Assembly (NCBI GenBank): GCA_913775595.1
Contig: CAJYLB010000001.1
Coordinates: 930,001 to 994,000 of the forward strand
Origin: an uncultured Aquiluna sp.
GTDB lineage: Bacteria > Actinomycetota > Actinomycetes > Actinomycetales > Microbacteriaceae
Direction of reading: 5' to 3'
DNA: 64,000 nt
In this document: piece after piece, positions 10,001 to 28,713 of the stretch
Numbering within the stretch: position 1 is the first letter of the stretch
Layout of the letters: every line of letters begins with the position of its first letter
Notes under the pieces: generated by a model
Databases searched by the model: none
The model's input: the letters and a program-made list of their open reading frames with translations, nothing else
Told to the model about the DNA's origin: nothing
Program-made: the position numbers and the translations under genes

Positions 10001-11197
10001 CTAAGAGAATAGTGCTTCGGCGAGCAGCTCAGACTCCCCAGCTCCGCGCGCAATTGCGTAGACACCAGACCCAATTGGCACGGTCCACTTATTCAGAAGA
10101 TCCAGCTGGTCGAGCCGGCGCTGAATCGGCAAGTACTGCTTTGAGATATCCCTTTGGTAGGCGGTCCAAAGTAGCCCCACATCCATGGAGCCCTGCTCGT
10201 TCATTCCGTTGTCATAGCTAAACGGCCTGCGGAAGATTCGCTCGCCCTCGGCCCCTGGTGCAGCTCGCCTAATGTGAGCAAATTCTGGAATCACCAGCAG
10301 CCCGTTTGGGTGCCTTGCACCTAAGTCCGGAATGTCAGTCTCGTTTTCTCCCGTGAGGGGTGCTCCGTTTGAAAGCTTTCGGCCTATGACCTCTTCTTTG
10401 CTCGGCGTGCCAAGCTGGTCCCAGGTATCAAGCTGCATTGCAATACGCCTGAAAACTAGAAGCGTTCCGCCCCTAATCCACTCAGGACCTTCATCAATCC
10501 AAACCACAGAGTCAAAGTCGCTTGAACCAAGCTCGGGGTTGGCGGTGCCATCAACCTGGCCCATGAGATTTCTATGGGTCAAGCCGGCAGGAATCATCCC
10601 TGGTGAGTGTGCGAAGCCTGGCTGCACCCATCGAACACTTGCAAACGGCATCGAGTCACGAACGAGCCCTCGGGTTCCATGAGCCAGGACGATGGGATCA
10701 TCAGCGGCGATGTGAATCAGCACATCGCCACCTGAGTAGCGCTCTTCCAACCTGTCGACATCGAAGGCAGGCAGTTCCTCAAATCCAGTTGGAAGCTCTG
10801 ACTCGAGCCCGAGCTTTGCAAACAAACTGGGTCCGAACCCCACATAAGCGGTAAACCGCGCTGGCCCAACTGCCAGCTCGGGAGCTGGATCCGCGAGCAC
10901 CGGCTCTCCTCGCATCAGCCTAGAAATGTCATCGGTGAGAAGCCTCATCCAGCGCAGCATGTCGGCCTTGGTAACGCTGTCTTTGATATCCAGCGCGACC
11001 ATGTTGGTGACGGCCTGGATCTCGAGCTCAATGCCGGGTTGGTTCTTGCCGTAGAAATCTGCGCTGCGCCCGGCGGCAAAGGTGTCGAGGTTCTGCTCCG
11101 CAGCGATAGAGGCTCCCGCGGCACCGACCGCAATACCCGCGGCACCAGATGCCGCGGCGGCAGCACTACCTGCTAGAAAGCCCCTGCGCGAAACCAA
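10001..11197 (-). CDS. Tat-exported Dyp-type heme peroxidase (EfeB-like)
   Basis: Twin-arginine SRRGFL; RNLMGQVDGTANP (GxxDG); AHIRRA proximal His; IFRRPFSY. Confidence 0.9.
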   Translation of the reverse strand: MVSRRGFLAGSAAAAASGAAGIAVGAAGASIAAEQNLDTFAAGRSADFYGKNQPGIELEIQAVTNMVALDIKDSVTKADMLRWMRLLTDDISRLMRGEPVLADPAPELAVGPARFTAYVGFGPSLFAKLGLESELPTGFEELPAFDVDRLEERYSGGDVLIHIAADDPIVLAHGTRGLVRDSMPFASVRWVQPGFAHSPGMIPAGLTHRNLMGQVDGTANPELGSSDFDSVVWIDEGPEWIRGGTLLVFRRIAMQLDTWDQLGTPSKEEVIGRKLSNGAPLTGENETDIPDLGARHPNGLLVIPEFAHIRRAAPGAEGERIFRRPFSYDNGMNEQGSMDVGLLWTAYQRDISKQYLPIQRRLDQLDLLNKWTVPIGSGVYAIARGAGESELLAEALFS

Positions 11198-11680
11198 TTA
11201 GTTGTCCATCTCCGTATCGCTGTGGTACTCCTCGTCGCCGCCCTCTGCGGGCTTTGCGACGATGCCATCAATTGTCAGATCCTCGGCACCATCAAAGTCA
11301 AAGGTAACTGAGATTTCTTCCCCTGCCTCCAGGTCGTCAGTAAGCATCATCAGCATTAGGTGGTTTCCGCCCGGCTCGAGGACTATCGACTTCCCGGCAG
11401 GGATTACTAGGCCACCGTCTATCTCCTGCATCATCATCTCGCCACCGATCATGCTCATCTCGTGGACCTCGACAACTCCAGCAATCTCAGTGGCACCGCC
11501 TACCAGCACCACATCTTGTGATGAGTTGTTAGTGAGCGTTCCATAGACCGCGGTCATGCCTCCGCGGGTGCTCATCTCGGAAGATTTCACCCAGAGATCT
11601 TTAGCCACGACATCGCCCGAGGAAGCACAACCTGCAAGAAATATTGGAATTGAGAGAAAAAGTAAGAGGGTCTTCCGCAT
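11198..11680 (-). CDS. Copper chaperone PCu(A)C lipoprotein
   Basis: Lipobox LAGC; Cu(I) motif HEM...M...LEPGGNHLML. Confidence 0.9.
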   Translation of the reverse strand: MRKTLLLFLSIPIFLAGCASSGDVVAKDLWVKSSEMSTRGGMTAVYGTLTNNSSQDVVLVGGATEIAGVVEVHEMSMIGGEMMMQEIDGGLVIPAGKSIVLEPGGNHLMLMMLTDDLEAGEEISVTFDFDGAEDLTIDGIVAKPAEGGDEEYHSDTEMDN

Positions 11681-11874
11681 TTCTTTCCTTAGATGTCGGT
11701 ACTCAGGCGCATAATTTGTGAGCCTCAGATGCTAATTCTACACCTTGTAGAAACAGAGTTTTAGGAATTTAGGTAAACATGTCCCGACACGCGGGAGTTG
11801 TTACCGCCTTAAAGTTCAAGTTGTGGGTTAATGTTGGGGAAAATAACTAAATAAGTGAATTTTTTCGCATTTCA

Positions 11875-11890
11875 CTACTAGATGTAGTGG
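11875..11890 (+). promoter_or_regulatory. NrdR box upstream of nrdH
   Basis: ctaCtAgATgTaGtgg fits the palindromic NrdR consensus acaCwAtATaTwGtgt and lies about 100 nt before nrdH. Confidence 0.7.
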
Positions 11891-11986
11891 TTTGGTGCTA
11901 ATGTTTGAAGTCTGAAATTTGCGAGAAATTTCACAAGAATTTGCCGAAAATGAGGCCAAAAGGCCAAAGAAATGGGGAGGGAACCA

Positions 11987-12211
11987 ATGGCGGTGACCGT
12001 TTACACATTGCCAGCTTGCGTTCAGTGCGACAGCACTAAGCGCATGCTGCAGCGCAACCAGGTCGAATACAACGAGGTAGACATGAGTCAGGACCCAGTT
12101 GCGCTTGAGATGGTAAAGACCATGGGGTACACAGCAGCACCAGTAGTCGTCGCAGACGAAGAGCACTGGTCAGGCTTCCGCATGGACAAGATCCAGGCTC
12201 TTTCGGCTTAG
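11987..12211 (+). CDS. nrdH: Glutaredoxin-like NrdH
   Basis: CVQC redox motif, WSGFRMDKI; GGAGG SD before ATG 11987. Confidence 0.95.
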   Translation: MAVTVYTLPACVQCDSTKRMLQRNQVEYNEVDMSQDPVALEMVKTMGYTAAPVVVADEEHWSGFRMDKIQALSA

Positions 12212-12223
12212 CTGAGGTATGAG

Positions 12224-12612
12224 ATGTTCGATGTTGTTTACTTCTCGAGCGTCTCGGAAAACACTAAGCGCTTCGTTGACAAGCTAGAGGCCAAAGCCGT
12301 TCGGATTCCGATCCGGACCGAGGAAGCCGCAGAGTTTGTTCACGACAGGGACAGCGTTTTGGTTCTCCCCACCTACGGTGGCGGGAACGACAACTCGACT
12401 GTCCCAAAGCAGGTAATCAAATTTTTGAATAACCCTGACAACCGGAAACACATCAAGGCAGTAATTGCCGGAGGAAACACCAATTTTGGTTCTCACTTCG
12501 GCAAGGCCGGCGACATCGTCGCCGACAAGCTGGGAGTGCCAGTGCTTTATCGCTTTGAAATCACTGGCACACCAGAGGACGTAGTAGAGGTCAAGGAAAG
12601 GCTGGCACAGTT

Positions 12613-12631
<19 letters not shown>
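12224..12631 (+). CDS. nrdI: Class Ib RNR flavodoxin-like assembly protein
   Basis: [26 protein letters not shown]. Confidence 0.95.
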
Positions 12632-15775
<3,144 letters not shown>

Positions 15776-15784
15776 GGAGGGAAC

Positions 15785-15832
15785 ATGGACTGCAACTGCG
15801 GTAAGGATTCTTGCAACTGCGGCAAGCACTAA
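15785..15832 (+). CDS. Putative 15-aa Cys-rich micropeptide MDCNCGKDSCNCGKH
   Basis: Hand translation. AGGAGG SD (15775-15780) overlaps the nrdF stop; two CNCGK repeats; ORF ends before the operon terminator. Confidence 0.65.
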   Translation: MDCNCGKDSCNCGKH

Positions 15833-15846
15833 ATCAAACCAAAGCT

Positions 15847-15880
15847 GCCGGGTGACCAATTGGTTACCCGGCTTCTTTGT
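15847..15880 (+). terminator. Intrinsic terminator of the nrdHIEF operon
   Basis: GCCGGGTGACC-aatt-GGTTACCCGGC stem followed by TTCTTTGT. Confidence 0.8.
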
Positions 15881-15895: not shown

Positions 15896-16732
15896 ATGAA
15901 CATGGACAGCGCGCTACTTCTGGCATTCGCTGTCACCCTGGGCGCTGGCCTGGCAACCGGAATTGGTTCAACAATTGCCTTTTTTGCAAAGACAACCAAC
16001 AAGAGCTTCTTTGCAGTCTCGATGGGATTCTCAGCTGGCGTGATGATTTATCTCAGCTTCGCTGAGATCCTCCCCAAAGCAACGCAGTATGTCGAGGAGT
16101 ATGTAACCGCCACTGAGGCTGCCGGCATTGCAGCTGGTGCTCTGATCGCAGGGCTTGTCTTGATGGCGGTAATCGATGCTCTGGTTCCCTCTGGAGCAAA
16201 CCCCCACGAGAACACAGATGTTGAGCTCCTGGGGAGCTCTGACACACCCCTGCAAGGTGTCGATGAAGTAAGGAACAAGGCCCTCCTGAGGATGGGAGTG
16301 TTTGTAGCCCTGGCAATTGCCATCCACAACTTCCCCGAGGGTCTCGCCACATTCTTGCTGGTGCTCGATGACCCACAGATTGGAATTGCGCTTGCAATTG
16401 CGGTTGCCATGCACAACATCCCTGAGGGCATTGCGGTCTCAGTGCCGGTTTATTACGCCACCAAGTCAAGACTCAAGGCTTTCAGGCTTAGCTTCCTCTC
16501 AGGTCTGGCCGAGCCCGCAGGAGCCGTCATTGGCTACCTAATCCTCGCCCAGTTCCTAAACCACTTCGTACTGGGCATCATCTTTGCAATGGTGGCCGGA
16601 GTCATGGTCTTTCTCGCCATAGACACCCTGTTGCCTACGGCTAGGAACTCAGCCAGGGGTCACCTAACCGTTTATGGTGTGATTGCAGGCATGGCGGTGA
16701 TGGCTGCCAGCTTGGTGCTGCTTCGGCTTTAG
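15896..16732 (+). CDS. zupT: ZIP family divalent metal transporter
   Basis: GFSAGVMIYLSF, AIAIHNFPEG, MHNIPEGIAVSVP, SGLAEP. Confidence 0.9.
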   Translation: MNMDSALLLAFAVTLGAGLATGIGSTIAFFAKTTNKSFFAVSMGFSAGVMIYLSFAEILPKATQYVEEYVTATEAAGIAAGALIAGLVLMAVIDALVPSGANPHENTDVELLGSSDTPLQGVDEVRNKALLRMGVFVALAIAIHNFPEGLATFLLVLDDPQIGIALAIAVAMHNIPEGIAVSVPVYYATKSRLKAFRLSFLSGLAEPAGAVIGYLILAQFLNHFVLGIIFAMVAGVMVFLAIDTLLPTARNSARGHLTVYGVIAGMAVMAASLVLLRL

Positions 16733-19700
16733 CGAGTTCGGGTCGTAGTCCGAATGTAGAACTGTCGGTTGATATAAACATCAACGATGATGTCGTATCC
16801 GGCTCCAGTGAAGCGGACTATTCGTGAGTAGGTGAAACGTTTATAAGGACTGATCGGGTCTTGGACCAGCCACTTCCCTGCGACCTTGGCACTGAGCCTT
16901 TGGCCATCGAGATCTGCGGTGTAGATGGCAATGTAGCCCTTGAATGTTCCAACCGTCACCTTGCCCTTCACGATGACAGGTATTGACATGGTCACGAGCT
17001 GTCCCTGAGCGTTCAAAGTTCCAATCTGAAGCGTGTGCTCACCAGGCAGCAAATCACTTGGCAGCGGCAGCTCTGATGCAAATGCGCCGAGGGCGTCAAT
17101 TTCTACGGTGCCAAGGTATTTAGGCGTTGAGAATATCCAAACCTCCACATAGCTGTTTGGTTTCAGCCCTTTCCCGCTCACCTTTGCCTTAGAGGCTATC
17201 TGGAGCTCTAGAGTCAGACTCTCGGTTACCTGAGAGACGGTCTCCTCACTCCTCACAGCACCGACGGAGACCTCCCAGTCAGTTCCCTTTGCAACCAGAT
17301 TCTTTTCGGTGGTATCCGGAGTAAAGATCACCTTCTCGGTATCACCACTCTCGTCGCCAACCGGACCCGAATCCTTTGCAGGCGTCGATGGTGGAGTTGG
17401 TATAAAGCCGATCTTTGTTGGTGGAGCATCTTCGGGTGGAGTCACCACTGGTGGCGTTGGAACAACAGGTACTACGGGTGCTGGCTGGGGGTTGTTCGAC
17501 ACCGCGGTCCAAAGTGCATAGAGAGTCACATTGTTGTCTATACCCGGGTCATAAGGGAATGTGACCTTTGTGGAGACGTCGTTCAAAGTTGTTGACCAAC
17601 CACTGAAGGTGAAACCGGATCTTGACGGCGATGCGGGTTGAGCTATGGTGCCACCGGCGATGAAGCTACCGCTTGCAACCGCCGAGCCGCTGTTGGAGTT
17701 GAAGGTCACAGCGTAGTTCGCAAGCGCTGGGGTGACTGCGGTAGAGGCTGTACTTGCTACCGAGTCACCGACGACGTTGGTCGCTTTCACGCTGAATGTG
17801 TAGGAAGTTCCATTAGTCAGGCCAGCCACGGTGCAGGAAGTAGTTGCAGTGGTGCAGGTTTGGCCGCCAGAGGAGGTGACTGTGTAGCCAGTGATGGCGG
17901 AACCTCCGTCGGAGGTTGGTGCCGTCCAACTAACTACTGCCTCTTCGCTGGCAGCAGTTGCGGATACTCCAGTCGGCTTATCCGGAACCGTCGAGGCAAC
18001 AACAATCTCTGGGTCCTCGGTGAGCTCAACCGTGATGGTGCCGTCCGCGGTTGCTCGACCAAGCTCAGTGATCTCCGTTCCAATGACCTGGTAGATCAGC
18101 TGGCCCTTCTTGATTGCAGCTGAATTCAATGTGACTGAGATGGCCTTACCGGCATCTGTATTCGGAACGGTTGCGGTTTTTCCTGAGCCATTAATCCAGG
18201 AAACAAGCAAAGAGAAGATGAAGTTATTGTCGCCGGGGATCAATGACTCCTGCCGCTCAGTGTCCTTGAAGTATTGTGCGGTAACCACCGTGTTGGCTGG
18301 CAAGGCAGCGTCCGGCACACTTACCGTTGCACTAGCACCCGTTGCAGCATGGTTTCGGGTAATGTCTCCTCCGCTTCGCCCAGCATCATTTCCAACTGTT
18401 AGAACTGCTGCGGTCTCCAAAGCAGATGGGTCAACACCGTACAGCGACTTCTGCACCCAGCGGGCATACATCTTCTTGGACTTGTTTGGCGTGTGGCTCT
18501 GACCGCCATTTCCAATCTTGTTGCCACCTGTCTCGGAGTCGTACCAACCGGTAAAGACAAAGCCGGGTCGCACGGGAGTGGGAAGAGTAATTGCAGATCC
18601 TCTGCCGACCGAGCCAGCTCCTCCCGCACCTGTTGTCGCGCCATAGCCGTCGTAGGTCAAGGTGTAAGAGCCGTCATCCCATAGTGCGTAGAGGATGCCG
18701 TCTGCGGTTGGACTGTGGGTGGTCAAGGCAGCGCCACCTGGAACTGTCGACCAGCCTGCAAACTCGTAACCGTCTCGGAAGTATGTCGTGCCATTAGGCA
18801 GGCTCATATTTCCAGTACCAACGGTGTAACTGTCAGAGACCTTGGCATTCTCGCCAACCTTGACTTGACCCCCTTGCCAGTCATAGGTAACCGTGTAGAT
18901 GTTTGGAGTCCAGTTAGCAACAAAAGACACGTTCGAGGAGCCAACGACAAAATTGGCACCGGCAGGATAGTTATTCGACCCGTCTGACCAGTGCGAGAAG
19001 GTGTAGCCAGCCTTGTTGCCGGCAGATGGCAGTGTCAGAGTCTGACCGATTGTCCGACCCAGAGGGCTGTTGATTACTGCATCTCCACCGTCAGTGTCAA
19101 AGTTCAGGTTGTAGGTAGTTGCAGTCCACTGTGCATAGAAAACTGTATTCGCACTTGGTGTGTACGTACTCAGCTCACCTACCGCGTTCTGAGCAGCGTC
19201 ATACCTGTCGCTAGTTCCTGCCGCGTCGGTTGTCCAGTGAGAGAAGGTGTAGCCGGTTCGCGCTATGTCTCCCTTTGAGCGAATCGAATATGCCTGTCCG
19301 ACAGTCGCTGTGTCGTAACCACTCGTTGCGCTGAGATCAGGTCCGCCCGTGCCACCGTTTGCGTTATAGGAAATCCTGTACTGATTTGGGACCCAAACTG
19401 CATAGAGCGTTTCGCCACCTATTGGGATGGTCACCGTGCTGCCCGGTGCGTAGCTGTTTCCAGACCCATCGCTCTCGGTGCTCCACCCAGCGAACCAGTG
19501 GTTTGCCTTTGCCACATCCCCGCCAACATTCGAGACAACCACGGTGTTCTCGATGTTTTCGCTCTGCGCTGTCGGGATGGTGCCGCCACCTCCATTCAGG
19601 TTATAGGTGAAGGTGTAGTCGACCGGTGTCCAAATTGCATAGAGCGTGACGTCCTGAGTAGGTGCAAGGGTGGCACCAATGTCACCCCCGGCTCCCGAGG

Positions 19701-22700
19701 GAGAAGTGTTCCAGCCGTCGAAGGTGTACCCAGCCTTAACCATGGTTCCGCGTCCAGGAAGCGTGACACTGGTTCCTGGTGAAGTCGTGTAGTTGTCGGA
19801 TGCCTTGGCAAGCGACCCCGAGGTTGCACCATTGCTTGAGTAGGTGATTGTGAAGGTGCCGGCTGTCCACTTTGGATAAAGATTTAGGTTTGCAGCAGAA
19901 CTGAACTGGATGGTCTCGCCTGCGTTTTTGGCGGTTCCGCTGCCATCGGCGTTCGTTACCCAGCCGGAGAATACATAGCCCGTTCTGGTCAAACCACCAC
20001 TGTTCGCCTTGATAGTTGCGGAGCTCAAGTAGGTATAGGTGGAGCCATCAACCGGAACAGATCCGGAGGTCTTATTTGTGCCGTTATATGTAAGTGTGAA
20101 GGGGTCTGCACTCCATTTGGCATTCAATGTCACGTTCACCGATGGGGTGTAGGCGTCGCCCGCACCGCCAACTCGGGCCAGATAATCGCCCACATACCAA
20201 CCCTCAAATGTGTAGCCGGTTCGAGTTGGTGTCGGCAGGGTAATCGCGGCTCCGCCTGTTTGGTAGGACTTAGAAGCATCGTTATCTCCACCATCAGCTC
20301 CGTGGTAATCAAAACCAACGGTGTAAGTGTTGGCAGTCCACTGGGCATAGAGGATGTCGTCGGCAGCGAGATTAATGTCCGCCTCGTCCGCGTAGTCAGT
20401 GCCCGAGCCATCAGCTGCAGTATCCCAACCGGCAAAAGAATATCCGGTCCGGGTAAAGGTGTTTTCTCTAAGTGCTGTCGCCGTGCTTACCGGCACTCGC
20501 TGGGTTACGTCTCCAGCTCCACCAACATAGTTGGACTTAAAGGTGACGGTAGGGTTCGAGAGATACTTGGCATACAGGGTCAGAGACCTCGCGGTGCTGT
20601 AGTTAGAGCCCGGAGCAACATCGGTTCCATTGCCGTCAGCCTGCGTGTTCCAGCCGCTGATGTACTTATTCTCCGGAGGAGTGATGCCGGTGGTTGCCTC
20701 GATCTGATAGACAGAGCCGCCCTGCTCATAAGTTCCAGAGCTTGGCAGCGTGCCGGAACCTCCGTTTATGTCGTAGGCGATGGTGTATTCATAGCCACTT
20801 CCAGCCAGAGCAAGTGATGGTCCTGGATAGGTTGCGTTCTCTGAAGAGGCCAGAGTTAGGTTTGCCTGGCTGTCCGTATCGCTCCGGCGCATGTAGATCG
20901 TTACTGCGCCATCTGCATCGCCATTTAGGAAATTGTCCAGAGCAGCGGTTGCTAACGCGTATTTCTTGCCAACCGTTGAATTACTCGTTGGAATCGAGAT
21001 TGTGCCCAGATAGGTTGCGCTCTTGGGGTTCCATGGCCAGCTGTTTGCTGTATCAAGACCCCATCCCTGTCCAGTTGTCCGTGCCTCTGTGAAGTCGAGC
21101 GAATTTTCGTCCCAAGAAGCGTCAGATGCGCCATAAACGTCAATGTTGAAGCTCGTGTAGGTGCGGTTGTAGCCGTTATTCCTGCTGCCGTCAGAGTTGC
21201 CGGTTACATAAACCTCTAGTGCAGCACCTGACCAATTGAACGCGGGGTCATAAGAAAACTCCGCATAGGAGACTCGGTTGTAGCTGTTCCCAATCGAGCT
21301 GGAGGCGTTCTTGAAGAGAAGGTCTGTACGGGCGCCAAATACAGTATTGGCACTAGAGCCTGACTGGACCCAGGTGTCGCCGAGAGCCTCAATAGAAGTT
21401 GACTCCCAAACTGGGTAGAGAGTGATGTCAGCCTCAGTTGTGTATGCAGCACCTAGGGCATGGTCGGTAGTTGACCCATCGCTGTTGACAGACCAGCCTG
21501 CGATTTGATGGTTCGCCCGAGTGAACCAACCCTCTGCCGTTGCCTTGTTGGCTAGAGTCAGGTCAACTCCATGAGTCTTTGTGGCAGTTTGACTGGAGCC
21601 CGCACCACTATCCCCGGACTGATAGGTAACGGTGTAGGAGTTTGGGGTCCACTTTGCATAAAGGGTTAGCCCTGAATCGGTCGAGTAATTGGCGCTTTCT
21701 GCATAGTCAGTACCTTCTCCGTCAGCCTGGGTGTTCCATCCTGCGAATGTGTACCCCGTCTTTGCCAAGGTCCCACTGTTGGAAGCTAGCTGTAAGGCAA
21801 CTCCTTCAATCTTGACCTGACTCGAGGGAACGCTTCCTGAGTTAGAACCATTGTCGTTGTAGGTCACGGTATGGGAAGACAGCGTGGTGACACTTGCCTT
21901 TGCTGATTCACTGCTCGTGACATAATTCCCCGTGCCTACGGCAGTCAGGGAGATCTGGTACTGCGTGGCATCCGCTATATTTTCGAAACTTCCGGCAGCG
22001 GCGCTAATCGTGTAGCTTGTCAGCCCGCTCGCAAGAGAAATAGTGTCCAGCAATGAGGTTCCGGCCGAGTCATAAATCTTTAGAGTGTACGAAGATGCGT
22101 TGGCAACTGCTGTCCAAGAGACATCGATTGACTTCAAGGTTTGTGCAGTAGTCGCCACCGTAGGGGTCCCAACGTTGGTCAGATTGATCGTTGGAACCGT
22201 AATCGTAAAGTTAGAGGTAGTCTCTGCCGTGCCTGCTTGATCAGTTGCCGTTACAGCCAATGAATAGCTTCCCGCCGTAGTTGGAGTTCCGCTAATTGCC
22301 CCGCTAGATGCGGATATGCTCAACCCGGGGGGCAGGCTGCCTGAACTTACTGAAAAGGTCTTGCTTCCTTTACCACCTGGTGCAAATCCTGGAAGGTTGT
22401 AAGCAGCTCCAAGAGTCGCCGACAGACCAGATGATGGTGCCCGAATACCAAGATCGAAATCTGCATAGGACACGGCTGTTCCGGTGCCATTTTCGGACAG
22501 GTCTTTTGAACCAACAGAGTCCTCGCCTCTATTGGAGGAGTTGTCAAAGGTGTACAGGTGTTCGAGGTTGCTCACACCTCCGCTACTTGCGCTATGCATC
22601 GAGGTTTGCACCTCGGACAGAGTCAAGGGCTTTGACCAAACTTTGACTTGGTCCACGTAGCCAAAGAAGACGTGGCGTGGGGTCCCGGCTTGGTAGTAGG

Positions 22701-25700
22701 AATTCTCGCCGACAAAGAAATTGCCGTTTTGGCTTGAGCCAGAAATTGACCCGGACTCAGCCAATACACCATCAATAAAGAGCTCATAGTTCCCATTGTC
22801 GAATGCATATGCAAAGTGGTGCCATGCACTTTGAGCCAAAGGAATTGATGTTGTGATCCAGTCTCCATCGACCACGTAAAGCTCTCGATTTGCCCCATCA
22901 TTCGCAACCATTACTGTGAAGCCACTTCCATCCGATGACCCATCCGTGCCTTGGGACAGAATTGGATTTTGGTTGCCAGCGTGATTCTTCTCGTAGAACC
23001 AGGCCTCAATGGACCAGCTTGACCTGTCATCAGGCAATACAGTGCCCGTTCTCTTTAGAGACTTCCCGGTTGTAGCACCGCTACCAGGGCTGGCACTTGT
23101 GAAGTTTGCATAGTTGTTTAGCAGGTTCTGCTGCCAAACCGGGTACAAAGTCAGGTTTGCATCCGTTGAGTAATTAGCCCCCAACGCATGAGTCTCAGCA
23201 CCGCCGTCAGTCGTGGACCAGCCAGTGACCGTGTAGCCGGCACGGGTGAAGTAGGAGTTCGCGGTTGCAGAATTTGGGAGACTGAAAGTGTCTCCGTCAT
23301 ATTTAAACCCTGTAACCGTTGCTCCGGTGCCATTTGTTCCGGCCTTGAACTCGATATTTGCCAAACCATAGGTTGCAGCTTTTGCCTTGAAACCGGTTTG
23401 TATTTCAGTTGAGGTTAGGGCCTTGTTGTAGATGCGGAACTCGCTCATCTTGCCGAAAAAGCCGATGTTGTTCCGGCCATCTCCCAGCCACAAGTAAGGG
23501 TTAGTGCTTGCGGTTCGATTCACTCCAGTGATCGGATCGCCATCAGGAGATCCATTCACGTAGAACTGCAATTTGCCAGACGCGTCTAATGTGAAGCCGA
23601 CGAGATACCAATCGGTTGACGAATTAGCAGCGGTCCCGATTTCAAAAACATACGACCCATAAAGATTGTTACCAGTTGGGCTGATCGTAGAACCATTCTC
23701 AGAGGTGAAGACGTTGAGGCGAGCGTTATTCACACCTTCTCTTCTGATCGCGAAATGCCAGTCTGGCGAGGACGCCCCGCCCGAGTTCGTAAACCACTGG
23801 GTGGCGAGGATGTTCCAACCGTCTCGAAGAGATGTTGGCTGAACCCACGCCTCGACAGTGATTGCCCCGCTGACTGCAGTCTCACTGCCGGAGAACTGGA
23901 TTGCATCGCCACTTCCATCAAACGTAAAACCCTCAATGTTGCCATCTGATCCAAAGTACGCCGCATTTCCTAGGGCCGTTCCTTGGGCATTAGATGCTCC
24001 AGGCAGCACGCTAGTCCAGGTGTTGCCACTGTTAGCAAGGCTGTCACCGTTAGCGCCATCGAGATTAATGAACAGGTTGGTCCAGCGAGCGTAAAGGTTC
24101 CCGTTTGCAGAGGGAGAGTAAGAGTCTCCGGCATAACCCACAAAAGTAGTCAGTCCATTGTCGGAGTACCATCCGCCAAATAGTCTTCCGTCCGAGATGG
24201 TTGGCGTTGGGAGTGTAATTGCCAGGCCGCCAACTGTGTAATCGGCATCGACAGGTCTCGTCCCACCGTCAGCACCGTTGTAGTTGTAAGTGATTGTGTA
24301 GGACGCAGTGCTCGTGACACTGACCTTGCTGGATTCACTGCTTGTGACGTAATTGCCGCTTCCAACCGCAGTCAAAGAAATCTGATATTGAGTTCCGTCT
24401 GCGATGTTTTCGAAGCTTCCAACAGCATCTGTAACCGTGTAGCTAGTTAGGTTGTTTGCAAGAGAAATTGTGTCCAAGAGAGTTGTGCCGGCAGCGTCAT
24501 AAATCTTTAGAGCATAGGAGGAGGCATTCGCTACCGCAGACCAGGACACATCAATTGACTTCAAAGTGCCCGCCGTGGCCCCAACTGTGGGGGCACCAAT
24601 ATTGGAAAGCGTTGCTGCCGCCACAGAAATGGTGAAGGTTCCTGTTGTTGCTGTTGCTGCTGAGCTGTCCGTAACTGAAACAGTTATTGCCGAGTCACCA
24701 GCCGTGGTTGGAGTGCCCGCAATAACACCAGTGGATCCGTTTAGGGAAAGGCCAGCTGGCAAACTGCCCGAGGTGACGGCATAGCTAAAGCCACCAGCGC
24801 CAGAAGCCGAAAGCGACAGCGAGTAGGCCGAATCAACCGTTGCAGCCAGTCCAGAAGTTGGGGTGGTTATGGAAATTGGCGTGAGGTAACGGATTGCGAC
24901 CAAGCCGGAGCCACCTGCACCACCGGATGCGCAGCCTGAGCTTCCACCACCACCGCCGCCGCCGCGATTGGCAACTCCAGGTGAGCCAACGGCGCCGTCG
25001 GACCCTGCACCAGCTCCAGCTCCTGAGCCTCCAGATGCCGCCGCAGCTGTTCCCCAAGATCCACCGCCACCACCGGAGCCATAAATCACAGCGGAGCCGA
25101 AGAAGTTGATGCTGTAGCCTGCTGCTCCAGACGAGCCCGCTTGGCCGCTGCCGGTCGCTAGAGCAGCACCTCCTGAGGCTCCCTGACCTCCGGCATCCGA
25201 TCCAGCTGAAATAGTTCCGCCTGATGTTGCGACGCTAACAGCGGGTGAGCCGGGTGAAGCACAAATATTGTCTGACCAATGCGTCTGACCACCCGTGCCG
25301 CCGTTAGCAAAATAATTCAAGCCGCTTATGTCGATCGTGGAACTTCCTCCAGCACCGCCGTCTCTCGCGGCGTCAACAACGGTGGAGTTGCCAGCACTTT
25401 TTCCCGCTCGTCCGCCTGAACCTACTGAAACAATTACGCCGTCGGCCGAGCTAACGTCAACACCGGATTTATAGAACACGCCACCACCGGCACCACCGGC
25501 ACCAACGTTTTCACCGCCACCGCCACCACCGCCGACGACTAGGGTGTCAATGCTGGAAACCCCGGAAGGTAGAGCTACTGCACAGTCACTCCCGCTGAGC
25601 ACAGAAATTGAGTTGTAGTTGTTGCCTGAAGCAGTGAAACTGCCTGTTTGTGTCGTGCACGGCTCGTACCATATCGCGTGCAGGGTGGAAGCGGCTGTTG

Positions 25701-28700
25701 CTGGCGACGAATACGGCCAGCTCTCAATGCGATTACCGATATCACCCTGATCGCCGGAGGTATCAGTGGTAGACCACCCAACAAAAACTTTGCCGGACTT
25801 GGTTGGACTTACGGGCTTTGCGATAGTGCCACCGGTTGTGAAGCTGGAGTCGCTGACAGCCGAGCCCCCATTTGAATCCCATGTCACCGTATTTGATGTC
25901 GCAGACCAGAGCGCATAGACGGTGTCAGGTGAGCTTGAAGGGGTAATCGATCCCCCAAGGTCCGCTCCCTCGCTAGATTCAGCCCAGCCTGCGAAAGTGT
26001 AGCCAGCCTTGGTTGGACCGGAGCCTGGCAAAGCAAGCGTTCCGCTTGTGACCAGCGAACTCGGGGTTGAATTCAAACTTCCGCCGTCGGCATTTAAGTT
26101 GACGGTTGTGTAGGTTAGGTCGCCGGCGTTGTAAGCATCAATCTCTGCCGGCGTAAGAGGCGAAGAAAAAATTCTTAGTGAGCGAATCTTGCCCTCTTGC
26201 CAGGTATCTGCGGTCCAGTTTGAACGACCTATGTAAAGGTTTTCCCATTCGGCAGCTGCGGGTGGTAGCGCCGTCATTGACGTGTCATTAGTTACCCGAG
26301 TTTCATCAACCCATATCTGACATGAGCTTCCGTCGAGCCTTACCGTATAGCGCTTTAGTGTGCCATCGAGCGCATTTGGAGCGACACAATCGTCGTCAAG
26401 GACCGCACCGCTGTAAATCTGAAAAATCAAATCATTCGTGTTTCCAGAACGCGAGAGAAGTAGATTGCTTCTTCCGTCAGCCCACTCCCCATCATTCGCA
26501 TCTCCAAAGTCAAAAATTCGATCCCAAACATGCGAATCGTCTAGATCCTGGGGCAGAGCAGCGTAGGTGTCGATTGTGATGCCAGAGCTGAACTGGCTGG
26601 CTGACATAGTGCCGGCAACATCGATGAAGGCACCATCGTTTCCGGTCGGGAAATCGAAAGCTTGATCTACAACTGACACAGAGGCCGCCGACGGCGCTCG
26701 AGTAGTTAACGTCCCATTTCCGACATGAGAGCCATGATTTGTAATCGAAGAGCCCGAACTAAATGAGTTGGTGTCTGTTGCATCTAGGGCTAATACGAGG
26801 GTTGACTCCCATACCGGATAAAAAGTCTCGGCTGCGTTAGTTGAGTAGGTTGCACCAAAGGCATGGGTAACAGAACCACCGTCTGTCGTTGACCAGCCCA
26901 CTACTCGATAGCCCGTTCGAGAAAACCAGCCGTTTGAAGTAGCTGAAGACGGCAGTAAGTAGTCCGAACCTTGACCTTTGAACTGGGTCTGATTTGCAGA
27001 GGCGCTCTGGCCTCCCGAATCCAGTGTTATCAAGTACTGGGTCTGGTAGCGAACAACAATTACTCCGGAGCCCCCCGGGGCCCCATAGTTGGCTAACCCG
27101 AGATAGCTCCCTCCTCCACCGCCTGAACCTGTATTAGGTGCACCTCCTGATGCATCCGAGGCTCCGACACCACCTTTGCCGCCGATTGAATTTGTCGAAA
27201 TCTGGCTAGTTGAGTTTGGGTATGAACTATTTCCATAGCCGCCGGAACCGCCGGCCGCGTACCATAGCGCGGATCCCGTAATGTCATTTTGGACTCCAGC
27301 GCCGCCTGCTCGATCAGTTGCTGCCGATCCGGCACCGCCGCCGCCACCGCCGACCGATCCGCTACCAGAAGCACCCCCGCTTCCCTGTCCTACGGTTCCG
27401 GTGCCAGCACTGCCTGACAAGTTCTCTCCCGCACCACCGCCGCCGGAGCCACCAGAATGCCCATTTTTTACGGTGCCAGAATTTGTAGCGTCGCCACCGC
27501 CGCCACCGCCAATTGGGGCTAGCCGATCACCCGACCCATCCCCAAATGTTGAATCTTGCCCGTCCCCCGATTGATAACCCTGGGTCGATGCGTCAACAGC
27601 GTAGCCGCCTATACCGCCCTGACCGACCACAACCGACTCAACTCCAGAAACAGCTAGCGAGGTTGAAGTGAGGTAGCCTCCGGCACCGCCACCTCCACCC
27701 TCGTCCGCACCACCACCTCCACCGCCTGCAACTGCGAGAGCTCGAACGGTGAAAACATCGCCGGGAACGGTCCAACCCCCCACTCCAGGTAAATAAGTTC
27801 TCGGGAAGGTGAGAATTGTGTCGGAACCCGAGGTTTGTGAATTCTTCACATCCTCATGAGCCACTGTGCCGACAGATGTGAGGTCGGCAGAGCCAACCCT
27901 GTCGTATGCGGTACCAGACGCTGAGTTAAAGTCATAAACAGCTCGCAAGCTAGGAGAGCCCGAAGCCCCTCCCGCAAGGAGGTGCATGCTCTCGCTAACC
28001 TGGCTTTGATTGAGCGCAGTGTCCCAGATTTTGAGCTGATCAATTTCGCCGTCAAACGCTCTGTCCTCAGACGCGGAGAAATAACCTACATATAAATCGT
28101 CATAAAGGTTTTGGAAACTTACCCCCGTCATGACGTGACTCTCCACAAGTTGCCCGTTTTTGTAAGAGTTAAGCGTGTAGGTTGAGCCGCTTATAGAAAC
28201 AGCAACTGCAATGTGGGTCCATTCGCCAATAGGTGCCGTGAGTCCTGCGGGCTTTCTGTTTGAAGCCTTTGAGGTGTCGCTAGTTCGGGGGGCATAGACA
28301 ACCTGAACTTGATCAGATCCAATGACTCCTCCGCCTATGTTTATATCGAATCTTCCATAGTTTGAGCCACCTCTGTTGTGTACGATCTGATTCCACTTAT
28401 TGGTCAAGCTATCTGGCTTGACCCATACCTCCACCGTGAAGGATGTTCTTTGCGGAATCGACTGGTGACCCTCAAGAACGAAGCCTTGTTGGTTACTTCC
28501 GCCTGAGAGAGATAGGGCGTAGTCAACAGTCGAACCTGCCCCTGGATCGGACGCAGCTGCCGGAGCAGCACCGAAAGACGTTAGTGAAATCAGAGCCAGA
28601 GAAATGGAGGTGGCAGCGGCAGCAAGGCGCCTGAGTGAGCGCTTAGCCAAGGCGAAGCTGGCCGAAAGCGGTGCGCCTTTGTTACTGCACACTGGAGGCC

Positions 28701-28713
28701 GCCATTGTTTCAT
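16729..28713 (-). CDS. Giant (3994 aa) secreted modular surface protein: about 4 LamG-like, 2 Gly-rich, about 18 InlB B-type repeats, 2 Ig(He_PIG)-FN3 pairs, 1 DNRLRE/CBM96-like and 1 further FN3 domain
   Basis: Uninterrupted 12-kb ORF. Signal peptide ends APAAA. Repeats of the form YTVTY..NGG...PTRTGYTFxGW...TLYAxW; FTVEVWVKP/WTHIAV LamG motifs; LPAGLSLNGSTGVIAGTPT He_PIG; VSWTAPTSDGGSAITGYTV FN3. Domain calls made by eye. Confidence 0.85.
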   Translation of the reverse strand: MKQWRPPVCSNKGAPLSASFALAKRSLRRLAAAATSISLALISLTSFGAAPAAASDPGAGSTVDYALSLSGGSNQQGFVLEGHQSIPQRTSFTVEVWVKPDSLTNKWNQIVHNRGGSNYGRFDINIGGGVIGSDQVQVVYAPRTSDTSKASNRKPAGLTAPIGEWTHIAVAVSISGSTYTLNSYKNGQLVESHVMTGVSFQNLYDDLYVGYFSASEDRAFDGEIDQLKIWDTALNQSQVSESMHLLAGGASGSPSLRAVYDFNSASGTAYDRVGSADLTSVGTVAHEDVKNSQTSGSDTILTFPRTYLPGVGGWTVPGDVFTVRALAVAGGGGGGADEGGGGGAGGYLTSTSLAVSGVESVVVGQGGIGGYAVDASTQGYQSGDGQDSTFGDGSGDRLAPIGGGGGGDATNSGTVKNGHSGGSGGGGAGENLSGSAGTGTVGQGSGGASGSGSVGGGGGGAGSAATDRAGGAGVQNDITGSALWYAAGGSGGYGNSSYPNSTSQISTNSIGGKGGVGASDASGGAPNTGSGGGGGSYLGLANYGAPGGSGVIVVRYQTQYLITLDSGGQSASANQTQFKGQGSDYLLPSSATSNGWFSRTGYRVVGWSTTDGGSVTHAFGATYSTNAAETFYPVWESTLVLALDATDTNSFSSGSSITNHGSHVGNGTLTTRAPSAASVSVVDQAFDFPTGNDGAFIDVAGTMSASQFSSGITIDTYAALPQDLDDSHVWDRIFDFGDANDGEWADGRSNLLLSRSGNTNDLIFQIYSGAVLDDDCVAPNALDGTLKRYTVRLDGSSCQIWVDETRVTNDTSMTALPPAAAEWENLYIGRSNWTADTWQEGKIRSLRIFSSPLTPAEIDAYNAGDLTYTTVNLNADGGSLNSTPSSLVTSGTLALPGSGPTKAGYTFAGWAESSEGADLGGSITPSSSPDTVYALWSATSNTVTWDSNGGSAVSDSSFTTGGTIAKPVSPTKSGKVFVGWSTTDTSGDQGDIGNRIESWPYSSPATAASTLHAIWYEPCTTQTGSFTASGNNYNSISVLSGSDCAVALPSGVSSIDTLVVGGGGGGGENVGAGGAGGGVFYKSGVDVSSADGVIVSVGSGGRAGKSAGNSTVVDAARDGGAGGSSTIDISGLNYFANGGTGGQTHWSDNICASPGSPAVSVATSGGTISAGSDAGGQGASGGAALATGSGQAGSSGAAGYSINFFGSAVIYGSGGGGGSWGTAAAASGGSGAGAGAGSDGAVGSPGVANRGGGGGGGSSGCASGGAGGSGLVAIRYLTPISITTPTSGLAATVDSAYSLSLSASGAGGFSYAVTSGSLPAGLSLNGSTGVIAGTPTTAGDSAITVSVTDSSAATATTGTFTISVAAATLSNIGAPTVGATAGTLKSIDVSWSAVANASSYALKIYDAAGTTLLDTISLANNLTSYTVTDAVGSFENIADGTQYQISLTAVGSGNYVTSSESSKVSVTSTASYTITYNYNGADGGTRPVDADYTVGGLAITLPTPTISDGRLFGGWYSDNGLTTFVGYAGDSYSPSANGNLYARWTNLFINLDGANGDSLANSGNTWTSVLPGASNAQGTALGNAAYFGSDGNIEGFTFDGSGDAIQFSGSETAVSGAITVEAWVQPTSLRDGWNILATQWFTNSGGASSPDWHFAIRREGVNNARLNVFTSENGSTISPTGNNLYGSYVFEIGTAANSSTDWYLVGFTLDASGKLQFYVNGSPDGDPITGVNRTASTNPYLWLGDGRNNIGFFGKMSEFRIYNKALTSTEIQTGFKAKAATYGLANIEFKAGTNGTGATVTGFKYDGDTFSLPNSATANSYFTRAGYTVTGWSTTDGGAETHALGANYSTDANLTLYPVWQQNLLNNYANFTSASPGSGATTGKSLKRTGTVLPDDRSSWSIEAWFYEKNHAGNQNPILSQGTDGSSDGSGFTVMVANDGANRELYVVDGDWITTSIPLAQSAWHHFAYAFDNGNYELFIDGVLAESGSISGSSQNGNFFVGENSYYQAGTPRHVFFGYVDQVKVWSKPLTLSEVQTSMHSASSGGVSNLEHLYTFDNSSNRGEDSVGSKDLSENGTGTAVSYADFDLGIRAPSSGLSATLGAAYNLPGFAPGGKGSKTFSVSSGSLPPGLSISASSGAISGTPTTAGSYSLAVTATDQAGTAETTSNFTITVPTINLTNVGTPTVATTAQTLKSIDVSWTAVANASSYTLKIYDSAGTSLLDTISLASGLTSYTISAAAGSFENIADATQYQISLTAVGTGNYVTSSESAKASVTTLSSHTVTYNDNGSNSGSVPSSQVKIEGVALQLASNSGTLAKTGYTFAGWNTQADGEGTDYAESANYSTDSGLTLYAKWTPNSYTVTYQSGDSGAGSSQTATKTHGVDLTLANKATAEGWFTRANHQIAGWSVNSDGSTTDHALGAAYTTEADITLYPVWESTSIEALGDTWVQSGSSANTVFGARTDLLFKNASSSIGNSYNRVSYAEFSYDPAFNWSGAALEVYVTGNSDGSRNNGYNRTYTSFNIDVYGASDASWDENSLDFTEARTTGQGWGLDTANSWPWNPKSATYLGTISIPTSNSTVGKKYALATAALDNFLNGDADGAVTIYMRRSDTDSQANLTLASSENATYPGPSLALAGSGYEYTIAYDINGGSGTLPSSGTYEQGGSVYQIEATTGITPPENKYISGWNTQADGNGTDVAPGSNYSTARSLTLYAKYLSNPTVTFKSNYVGGAGDVTQRVPVSTATALRENTFTRTGYSFAGWDTAADGSGTDYADEADINLAADDILYAQWTANTYTVGFDYHGADGGDNDASKSYQTGGAAITLPTPTRTGYTFEGWYVGDYLARVGGAGDAYTPSVNVTLNAKWSADPFTLTYNGTNKTSGSVPVDGSTYTYLSSATIKANSGGLTRTGYVFSGWVTNADGSGTAKNAGETIQFSSAANLNLYPKWTAGTFTITYSSNGATSGSLAKASDNYTTSPGTSVTLPGRGTMVKAGYTFDGWNTSPSGAGGDIGATLAPTQDVTLYAIWTPVDYTFTYNLNGGGGTIPTAQSENIENTVVVSNVGGDVAKANHWFAGWSTESDGSGNSYAPGSTVTIPIGGETLYAVWVPNQYRISYNANGGTGGPDLSATSGYDTATVGQAYSIRSKGDIARTGYTFSHWTTDAAGTSDRYDAAQNAVGELSTYTPSANTVFYAQWTATTYNLNFDTDGGDAVINSPLGRTIGQTLTLPSAGNKAGYTFSHWSDGSNNYPAGANFVVGSSNVSFVANWTPNIYTVTYDWQGGQVKVGENAKVSDSYTVGTGNMSLPNGTTYFRDGYEFAGWSTVPGGAALTTHSPTADGILYALWDDGSYTLTYDGYGATTGAGGAGSVGRGSAITLPTPVRPGFVFTGWYDSETGGNKIGNGGQSHTPNKSKKMYARWVQKSLYGVDPSALETAAVLTVGNDAGRSGGDITRNHAATGASATVSVPDAALPANTVVTAQYFKDTERQESLIPGDNNFIFSLLVSWINGSGKTATVPNTDAGKAISVTLNSAAIKKGQLIYQVIGTEITELGRATADGTITVELTEDPEIVVASTVPDKPTGVSATAASEEAVVSWTAPTSDGGSAITGYTVTSSGGQTCTTATTSCTVAGLTNGTSYTFSVKATNVVGDSVASTASTAVTPALANYAVTFNSNSGSAVASGSFIAGGTIAQPASPSRSGFTFSGWSTTLNDVSTKVTFPYDPGIDNNVTLYALWTAVSNNPQPAPVVPVVPTPPVVTPPEDAPPTKIGFIPTPPSTPAKDSGPVGDESGDTEKVIFTPDTTEKNLVAKGTDWEVSVGAVRSEETVSQVTESLTLELQIASKAKVSGKGLKPNSYVEVWIFSTPKYLGTVEIDALGAFASELPLPSDLLPGEHTLQIGTLNAQGQLVTMSIPVIVKGKVTVGTFKGYIAIYTADLDGQRLSAKVAGKWLVQDPISPYKRFTYSRIVRFTGAGYDIIVDVYINRQFYIRTTTRTR
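21880..22450 (-). repeat. Second copy of the internal He_PIG + FN3 module (first copy about 24310-24870)
   Basis: TLKSIDVSWTAVANASSYTLKIYD...GSFENIADATQYQISLTAVGTGNYVTSSES is nearly identical to TLKSIDVSWSAVANASSYALKIYD...GSFENIADGTQYQISLTAVGSGNYVTSSES. Confidence 0.85.

Follow-up and report, generated by a model that had tools for sequence, protein, structure and literature searches.

Does the class Ib ribonucleotide reductase (RNR) operon of this Aquiluna genome end with nrdF, or does it encode a fifth product, a peptide of 15 residues with four cysteines, and what might so small a peptide do? Within the window, the 64,000-nt stretch of DNA analyzed here, the operon lies on the forward strand and comprises nrdH (11972..12211, with a probable start at 11987; TIGR02194), nrdI (12224..12631; TIGR00333), nrdE (12613..14790; PF02867, PF08343, and PF00317), and nrdF (14810..15775; TIGR04171, 481 bits against a cut-off of 355), where NrdE was called by Pfam and the other three proteins, together with ZupT, by matches over curated NCBIfam cut-offs. 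The metal-dependent class Ib beta subunit encoded by nrdF retains its carboxylate and histidine ligand motifs and is therefore not assigned to class Ie, the motif patterns being those that we take to separate the two classes. The nrdF stop codon (TAA, 15773-15775) is fused to a Shine-Dalgarno (SD) sequence (GGAGG, 15776-15780) followed by the spacer GAAC, a junction that spans 15773..15784 on the plus strand. Immediately beyond, a micro-ORF encoding MDCNCGKDSCNCGKH (CxC-x4-CxC; 15 aa with four Cys, one His, and two Asp) runs on the same strand from the ATG at 15785 to the end of its TAA at 15832. After a gap of 14 nt, the operon is closed by an intrinsic terminator (15847..15880, plus strand) with an 11-bp stem (15847-15872) and a U-tract, the hairpin having a predicted energy of -22.8 kcal/mol (z -6.2), and the ZIP family gene zupT follows (15896..16732, plus strand; NF003243 over cut-off). 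The initial annotation had described this arrangement, and its coordinates, SD fusion, four-nucleotide spacer, ATG, ORF length, distance to the terminator, and placement of zupT were all correct on re-examination, as was the GGT/GGC difference between the two CNCGK units, seen again in the source sequence. Beyond zupT, a giant surface protein-like ORF of 3994 aa with many repeats (16729-28713, minus strand) converges on zupT and overlaps its stop codon.

The micro-ORF is not a chance reading frame; it is a real gene whose coding sequence is conserved throughout the genus. Among ATG ORFs of 10-40 aa in the whole 1.25-Mb genome, 1421 are SD-led and 11 of these encode at least four cysteines, and the ORF at 15785 is the only one that combines at least four cysteines with two CxC motifs. 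The same genome holds, outside the window (G000:C1:178322, plus strand), an SD-led ORF of 39 aa with six cysteines arranged CxxC...C...CxC, a candidate small metal-binding protein. Among 62 genomes of the genus Aquiluna, nrdF was located in 46 and its 3' end was assembled in 44, and the micro-ORF stands directly behind the nrdF stop in 41 of these 44, so that the search of relatives for which the initial annotation had called recovered both the ORF and its cysteine pattern. All 41 copies encode 15 or 16 residues with four cysteines (25-27% of residues) and no Phe, Trp, or Tyr, a terminal His is present in all except one, and an SD-like word whose sequence varies without ever being lost precedes every ATG by 6-9 nt.

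Scanning for the pattern brought in a further 69 metagenome contigs, a sample biased by selection on the N-terminal motif, and the resulting 119 partly redundant loci yielded 56 distinct ORFs encoding 32 peptides, with 54 of the ORFs alignable. In this alignment the four cysteines are invariant while TGC and TGT exchange at three of the four positions, serine is encoded by both TCN and AGY codons, the stop alternates between TAA and TAG in place, and length changes occur as whole codons. Asp2, Lys7, Asp8, and Lys15 are conserved, and a terminal His is found in 40 of the 54. The second motif reads CGC in 29 aligned ORFs, CNC in 24, and CSC in one; the exact CNCGK duplication is thus lineage-specific. 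Two further ORFs, both outside the alignment, have CC as the second motif (CxC...CC).

Three Aquiluna genomes (G003, G022, and G057) lack the micro-ORF yet retain the terminator and zupT; they are close relatives, with 95-98% identical NrdF proteins. A clean deletion is suggested in G003, as the last two codons and the stop of the ORF are still readable there. No second copy was found elsewhere in these three genomes, and a relocated copy was rejected because the sole metallothionein-looking match (G022:C1:1271841) lies antisense within a long membrane-protein ORF, presumably a cytochrome c assembly gene, and is attributable to chance.

The selective regime acting on the micro-ORF was assessed by counting substitutions on an nrdF-based spanning tree of 40 genomes (G058 was dropped). 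Synonymous change (pS 0.21) far exceeded nonsynonymous change (pN 0.053), giving a pN/pS of 0.26 (Fisher p 2e-15) for the whole ORF and 0.39 (Fisher p 2e-7) with the Cys codons removed, although these p values are overstated since kin genomes are not fully independent. The last 90 codons of nrdF gave a pS of 0.26, close to that of the micro-ORF (p 0.07 for the difference), and a ratio of 0.035; a low pN/pS at a pS close to that of nrdF argues for selection on the peptide and not on the RNA. In a test of reading frames, pN/pS was 0.18 in frame against 0.59-2.7 in four other frames, with an antisense shadow frame at 0.25. Purifying constraint thus covers the non-cysteine residues too and is confined to a single frame, with the start, stop, and SD conserved around it. 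The proposal that the micro-ORF is a co-transcribed fifth gene of nrdHIEF is supported by its conservation, its universal SD, this purifying selection, and its linkage to nrdF, and the fused junction further points to translational coupling to nrdF.

The distribution of the gene was traced by an nrdF-anchored pattern scan over 401 Microbacteriaceae genomes, in which a reversed control also gave matches in nine genomes. Matches were obtained in 17 of the 401, comprising 11 real cases (Aquiluna, the sister genus g54, and one Rhodoluna) and six chance ORFs. Both the ORF and zupT are present at all four g54 nrdF loci. Nineteen of 61 Rhodoluna genomes carry this NrdF, and the micro-ORF follows in three of the 18 with a 3' end (one being cut by a contig end). 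It is absent behind nrdF at nine loci of other small-genome Microbacteriaceae and at seven loci of other families. The ORF is kept between nrdF lineages only 84% identical at the protein level. Rows that bear the ORF fall into a single clade of the nrdF trees with moderate support (87/77 for 312 nt and 81 rows; 89/92 for 930 nt and 33 rows), the ORF and zupT arise in the same clade (89/92), and the ORF-bearing Rhodoluna and g54 rows are nested in an Aquiluna subclade (100/100). An AU test on nrdF rejects Rhodoluna monophyly (p 7e-36); the remaining Rhodoluna are paraphyletic as well, so that the rejection does not single out the rows that carry the ORF. A single gain with some losses, together with transfer of an nrdF-ORF-terminator-zupT block, would account for this distribution. 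Inheritance of the ORF with zupT from a donor was also considered and rejected, as no such ORF lies near zupT at 23 other Actinomycetota loci. We thus show that a conserved coding micro-ORF, which lies inside the terminator and whose SD is fused to the stop codon of nrdF, has been inherited and transferred with nrdF.

The gene behind the terminator is more variable. Directly downstream of the ORF is zupT in 31 Aquiluna, with one more case cut by a contig end, and nine genomes keep the ORF without an adjacent zupT. The next gene is convergent in five of these (G015, G045, and G073, where it encodes a PF02113 peptidase, as well as G058 and G063) and another co-directional gene in four, namely three genomes and G065, where it encodes an NRAMP protein (PF01566). 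G063 and G065, each a single contig and 99% complete, keep the ORF and have no ZupT match at E<=1e-20. Conversely, zupT occurs without the ORF in the three ORF-less Aquiluna and in one Rhodoluna (G473). An NRAMP/MntH-type gene stands directly behind nrdF in nine of 15 ORF-less Rhodoluna loci (L265-L267 and L273-L278), as it does in G065 (L169). This exchange of ZIP and NRAMP genes in one slot suggests that the ZupT encoded here may act as a Mn/Fe importer supplying NrdF. ZIP proteins include known Mn importers, and a broad substrate spectrum is described for E. coli ZupT (PMC8844249).

What, then, would the peptide do? Its composition and context make a metal chelator or a redox helper plausible. 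We give an even chance to our preferred reading, that it is a translationally coupled, minimal Cys4 chelator, a micro-metallothionein that would buffer Zn, Cd, or Cu during the loading of Mn into NrdF. Ribosomes finishing nrdF would re-initiate at the fused SD, such that the 15-16-residue peptide would be made in step with NrdF. The two CxC pairs would form a four-thiolate site, by which each peptide would hold a single Zn(II) or Cd(II) ion or oligomers would hold Cu(I) clusters; with only four cysteines, against seven in the 26-aa fungal metallothioneins, a multi-metal cluster would need oligomers, and the count suggests one divalent ion per monomer. As a ribosomally made mimic of phytochelatin, the peptide would sequester soft, tightly binding metals as the neighboring broad-specificity importer (ZupT or NRAMP) supplies the ions that fill the Mn/Fe site of NrdF, and it may also protect the catalytic thiols in NrdE and NrdH; such a role would be helpful and not essential. 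Metallothioneins are recognized by low mass, a high content of cysteine in CxC or CC motifs, and the lack of aromatic residues, and the peptide has each of these features. The chelator reading is further favored by the divalent-metal importer gene that, in most of the clade, comes next after the operon, by the appearance of the ORF and zupT in one clade of the nrdF tree, and by the lack of CDF and small-thiol gene matches and the single P1B ATPase described below. Two published observations provide the background: Mn-dependent NrdF has to choose Mn despite the Irving-Williams order (PMC11672702), and a four-Cys phytochelatin binds Zn(II) 1:1 with up to low-picomolar affinity (PMC11191002).

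Profile searches of the source genome gave no match to PF02069 at E<=10, with the control over the cut-off in Synechococcus, and none to PF00131 or PF01439, two profiles whose controls gave no over-cut-off positive and which have little power on a 15-aa target. Weighing most against a chelator are the three genomes that have lost the ORF yet bear zupT, the two complete genomes in which the ORF persists with no zupT match, and the absence of any sign of metal-responsive control. With regard to the last point, the 21 aligned regions upstream of nrdH contain no recognizable box for a metal sensor or other regulator apart from a palindrome-like element (11866..11883, plus strand; columns ACTA.AT.TAGTGG kept at >=80% of the regions), which resembles an NrdR operator. 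Fur-family and DtxR-family regulators are encoded in the genome. A bolder and more tentative version of the chelator reading would make the peptide a specialized guard of class Ib RNR metallation, produced in stoichiometric amounts by streamlined bacteria that have neither mycothiol nor glutathione, and the smallest of a class of 15-23-aa micro-metallothioneins that has been overlooked and is found also in marine Bacteroidota and viral contigs.

Divergent from nrdH are genes for a PCuAC copper chaperone and a Dyp peroxidase (10001-11680, minus strand), and a PCuAC match adjoins nrdH in 12 of 20 related regions. The intergenic stretch between the PCuAC gene and nrdH (11727-11860) carries more conserved words, namely a TTCTAC...GTAGA inverted repeat, CGACACGC, AAAGTTCAAGTTGTGG, and AACTAAATAAG. 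As for metal export, the source genome has no CDF match by profile search and a single heavy-metal P1B ATPase, presumably CopA-like by its motifs.

The strongest rival to the chelator, possible though unlikely, is a redox or thiol helper, in which the peptide would replace missing small thiols as a dithiol/disulfide buffer or scavenge, at its own expense, superoxide or peroxide leaked by NrdI as Mn-NrdF is activated, metal binding being incidental. Such a role would suit co-expression with NrdH and NrdE, both of which depend on Cys pairs, and NrdI is the source of the superoxide used to assemble the cofactor (PMC11672702). It would also suit the thiol gene content of the genome, in which no MshC, MshA, GshB, or EgtB match exceeded its cut-off (the EgtB control gave no over-cut-off positive); the Luna-1 genomes searched (G000, G022, G057, G063, G065, G086, and G375) likewise have no MshA/MshC, GshB, or EgtB genes over cut-off. 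However, the same genes are missing from ORF-less G022 (all four) and G086 (the three looked for); hence the peptide is dispensable as a thiol substitute. In addition, redoxins have CxxC whereas the motif here is CxC, and no dedicated reductase gene is adjacent.

Less probable is that the peptide serves as a stoichiometric RNR accessory: bound to NrdF, NrdI, or NrdE, it would carry a metal or an Fe-S cofactor used in assembling or repairing the radical cofactor, much as YfaE does for class Ia RNR. The ORF travels with nrdF, its coupling to nrdF suggests matched amounts of the two products, and Asp2, Lys7, Asp8, and Lys15 are conserved. Against such a partnership, the ORF is absent behind most class Ib nrdF genes examined and has been lost in the three close relatives with nearly identical NrdF.

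We regard as improbable, too, a cis-acting sensor, in which stalling on the Cys codons, or a metal-bound nascent chain, would alter termination, read-through, or the translation and stability of nrdF mRNA. This includes the proposal of the initial annotation that the ORF is a leader peptide for zupT read-through. The ORF does end just before the terminator with zupT right behind, leaving little space for a separate promoter, and one RNA-library contig spans 15761-16380, though it may be DNA. Mycobacterial poly-Cys attenuators (10.1101/834739) and Bordetella CruR (PMC9426467) provide precedents. The RNA itself argues otherwise. A hairpin comparable to the terminator is present in 84 distinct ORF-plus-terminator sequences, and the best antiterminator is weak (median -3.5 versus -17.5 kcal/mol), is never the stronger structure, and beats synonymous shuffles (p<=0.05) in five of the 84, about the number expected by chance. 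The proposed pairing of CGGCAAGC (15820-15827) with GCTGCCG is present but no better than in shuffled sequence (z -0.2), and no unusual RNA fold was detected over the micro-ORF. Moreover, the ORF is the last of its operon and not the first, is SD-led, remains intact ahead of convergent or other co-directional genes with no stable link to a functionally matched next gene, is constrained at non-cysteine residues, and has no consecutive Cys codons in 54 of 56 distinct forms. Because the ORF tracks nrdF rather than zupT, as seen in the nine genomes with the ORF and no adjacent zupT and the three with the reverse, and has no conserved antiterminator, the leader-peptide idea is unsupported; an upstream effect on nrdF itself may nonetheless occur. 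Contigs from four RNA libraries cover nrdH-nrdF and three cover position 15818 inside the ORF; their summed depth drops in the bin starting at 15804 and remains low across zupT, a weak hint at most since contigs cannot rank genes and relatives diverge there. Finally, an untranslated or functionless ORF, preserved by recent common descent or RNA constraint, might explain the similarity of non-independent kin and the three losses, but it is very unlikely given the frame-specific constraint, the divergence of the nrdF lineages that retain the ORF, the ever-present yet variable SD, and the ordinary RNA fold.

Cys-rich micro-ORFs were also encountered elsewhere when the pattern was searched without the nrdF anchor. 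Those of 21-23 aa carry 8-9 cysteines, far above the number demanded by the pattern, and occur, among the matches listed, at 13 of 120 genome loci, eight of them from marine-type Bacteroidota, with conserved ORFs at the locus center (L028, L031, L050, L056, L076, L079, L096, L099, L117, L118, L120, L132, and L146). The 21-aa form, CxC-x2-CxC-x3-CxC-x-CC-x-C, is micro-metallothionein-like, and a 21-aa, nine-Cys type is found at nine of 33 viral loci from IMG/VR (L290, L291, L292, L302, L303, L307, L310, L315, and L317). In five viral cases the 21-aa ORF lies just upstream of an ORF of ~430 aa with a GxGxxG-like start, presumably FAD-binding, while two further viral loci (L314 and L321) have a 17-aa CxC-x2-CxC ORF. 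A phage link to RNR was rejected, as none of the 12 viral loci inspected by eye, out of the 33, had an evident RNR gene. All seven sequences looked up (21-27 aa) are missing from a collection of 15 billion proteins, and the best Pfam match among five Cys-rich ORFs scanned was Metallothio_5 (E 0.11). The start that these ORFs share with the Aquiluna peptide is the search pattern itself and hence no sign of homology. A metallothionein-like protein of 45 aa with 11 cysteines (L080:1456-1590, minus strand) holds a segment much like the Aquiluna peptide; it has no NCBIfam match, and its ESM Atlas leads all score below 0.9 (0.82 for a Metallothio_5 cluster). In a member of the Saccharimonadales, a 16-aa, six-Cys ORF with a GGAGG SD (L073:1492-1539, minus strand) has its stop abutting a glyoxalase-family gene (PF00903) that we take to resemble CadI/ArsI.

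If the chelator reading is true, the peptide would move the lower size bound for gene-encoded metal-thiolate chelators to 15 aa from the 26 aa of the fungal metallothioneins (PMC4755600), add a new accessory to the textbook nrdHIEF operon, and provide one answer to how a Mn enzyme is correctly loaded in streamlined bacteria that have neither zinc exporters nor the usual small thiols. The Cys-rich ORFs elsewhere suggest that gene callers overlook a wider set of such peptides. The reading is directly testable, given that the peptide is easily synthesized, natural deletion strains exist, and the sister genus is transformable (PMC11577799).

A literature search that covered few subscription papers returned no description of an nrdF-linked micro-ORF, and the main text of a Luna-1 genomics paper (PMC12422013) does not contain the words zinc, manganese, copper, metal, or ribonucleotide. 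The micro-gene is real and apparently undescribed, and the function proposed for it is probable. Among known peptides, it resembles the fungal family-8 Cu-thioneins of Neurospora crassa and Agaricus bisporus, once the shortest metallothioneins at 26 aa and seven Cys, in its CxC motifs with short Gly/Ser/Lys linkers, its very small size, and its lack of aromatic residues (PMC4755600). In contrast to them, it has 15-16 aa and four Cys (two of three CxC units), is bacterial, and lies inside a nucleotide-metabolism operon. With SmtA/BmtA (PF02069) and mycobacterial MymT it shares small size, richness in cysteine, and putative metal sequestration. It is about one third of their length, and it differs in having no PF02069 match, no adjacent metal-sensor gene, and an NrdR-like promoter box. 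SmtA is metal-induced under SmtB control, and BmtA genes are often overlooked by annotation (PMC3323870). The phytochelatin PC4 (PMC11191002) is likewise a short, flexible four-Cys peptide, as the product described here would be in buffering one Zn(II), but it is derived from glutathione whereas the Aquiluna peptide is gene-encoded in a host with no GshB match. As a short ORF with Cys codons that precedes a transporter gene, the micro-ORF recalls Bordetella CruR and the mycobacterial poly-Cys LL-sORFs, the latter being leaderless first ORFs that contain runs of Cys codons and precede genes of Cys metabolism (10.1101/834739); unlike these, it is the last gene of its operon, is unlinked to the next gene, and has neither a competing RNA structure nor a poly-Cys run. 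The operon itself is that of a class Ib system with standard NrdH, NrdI, NrdE, and NrdF, from which it differs by the extra micro-ORF fused to the nrdF stop.
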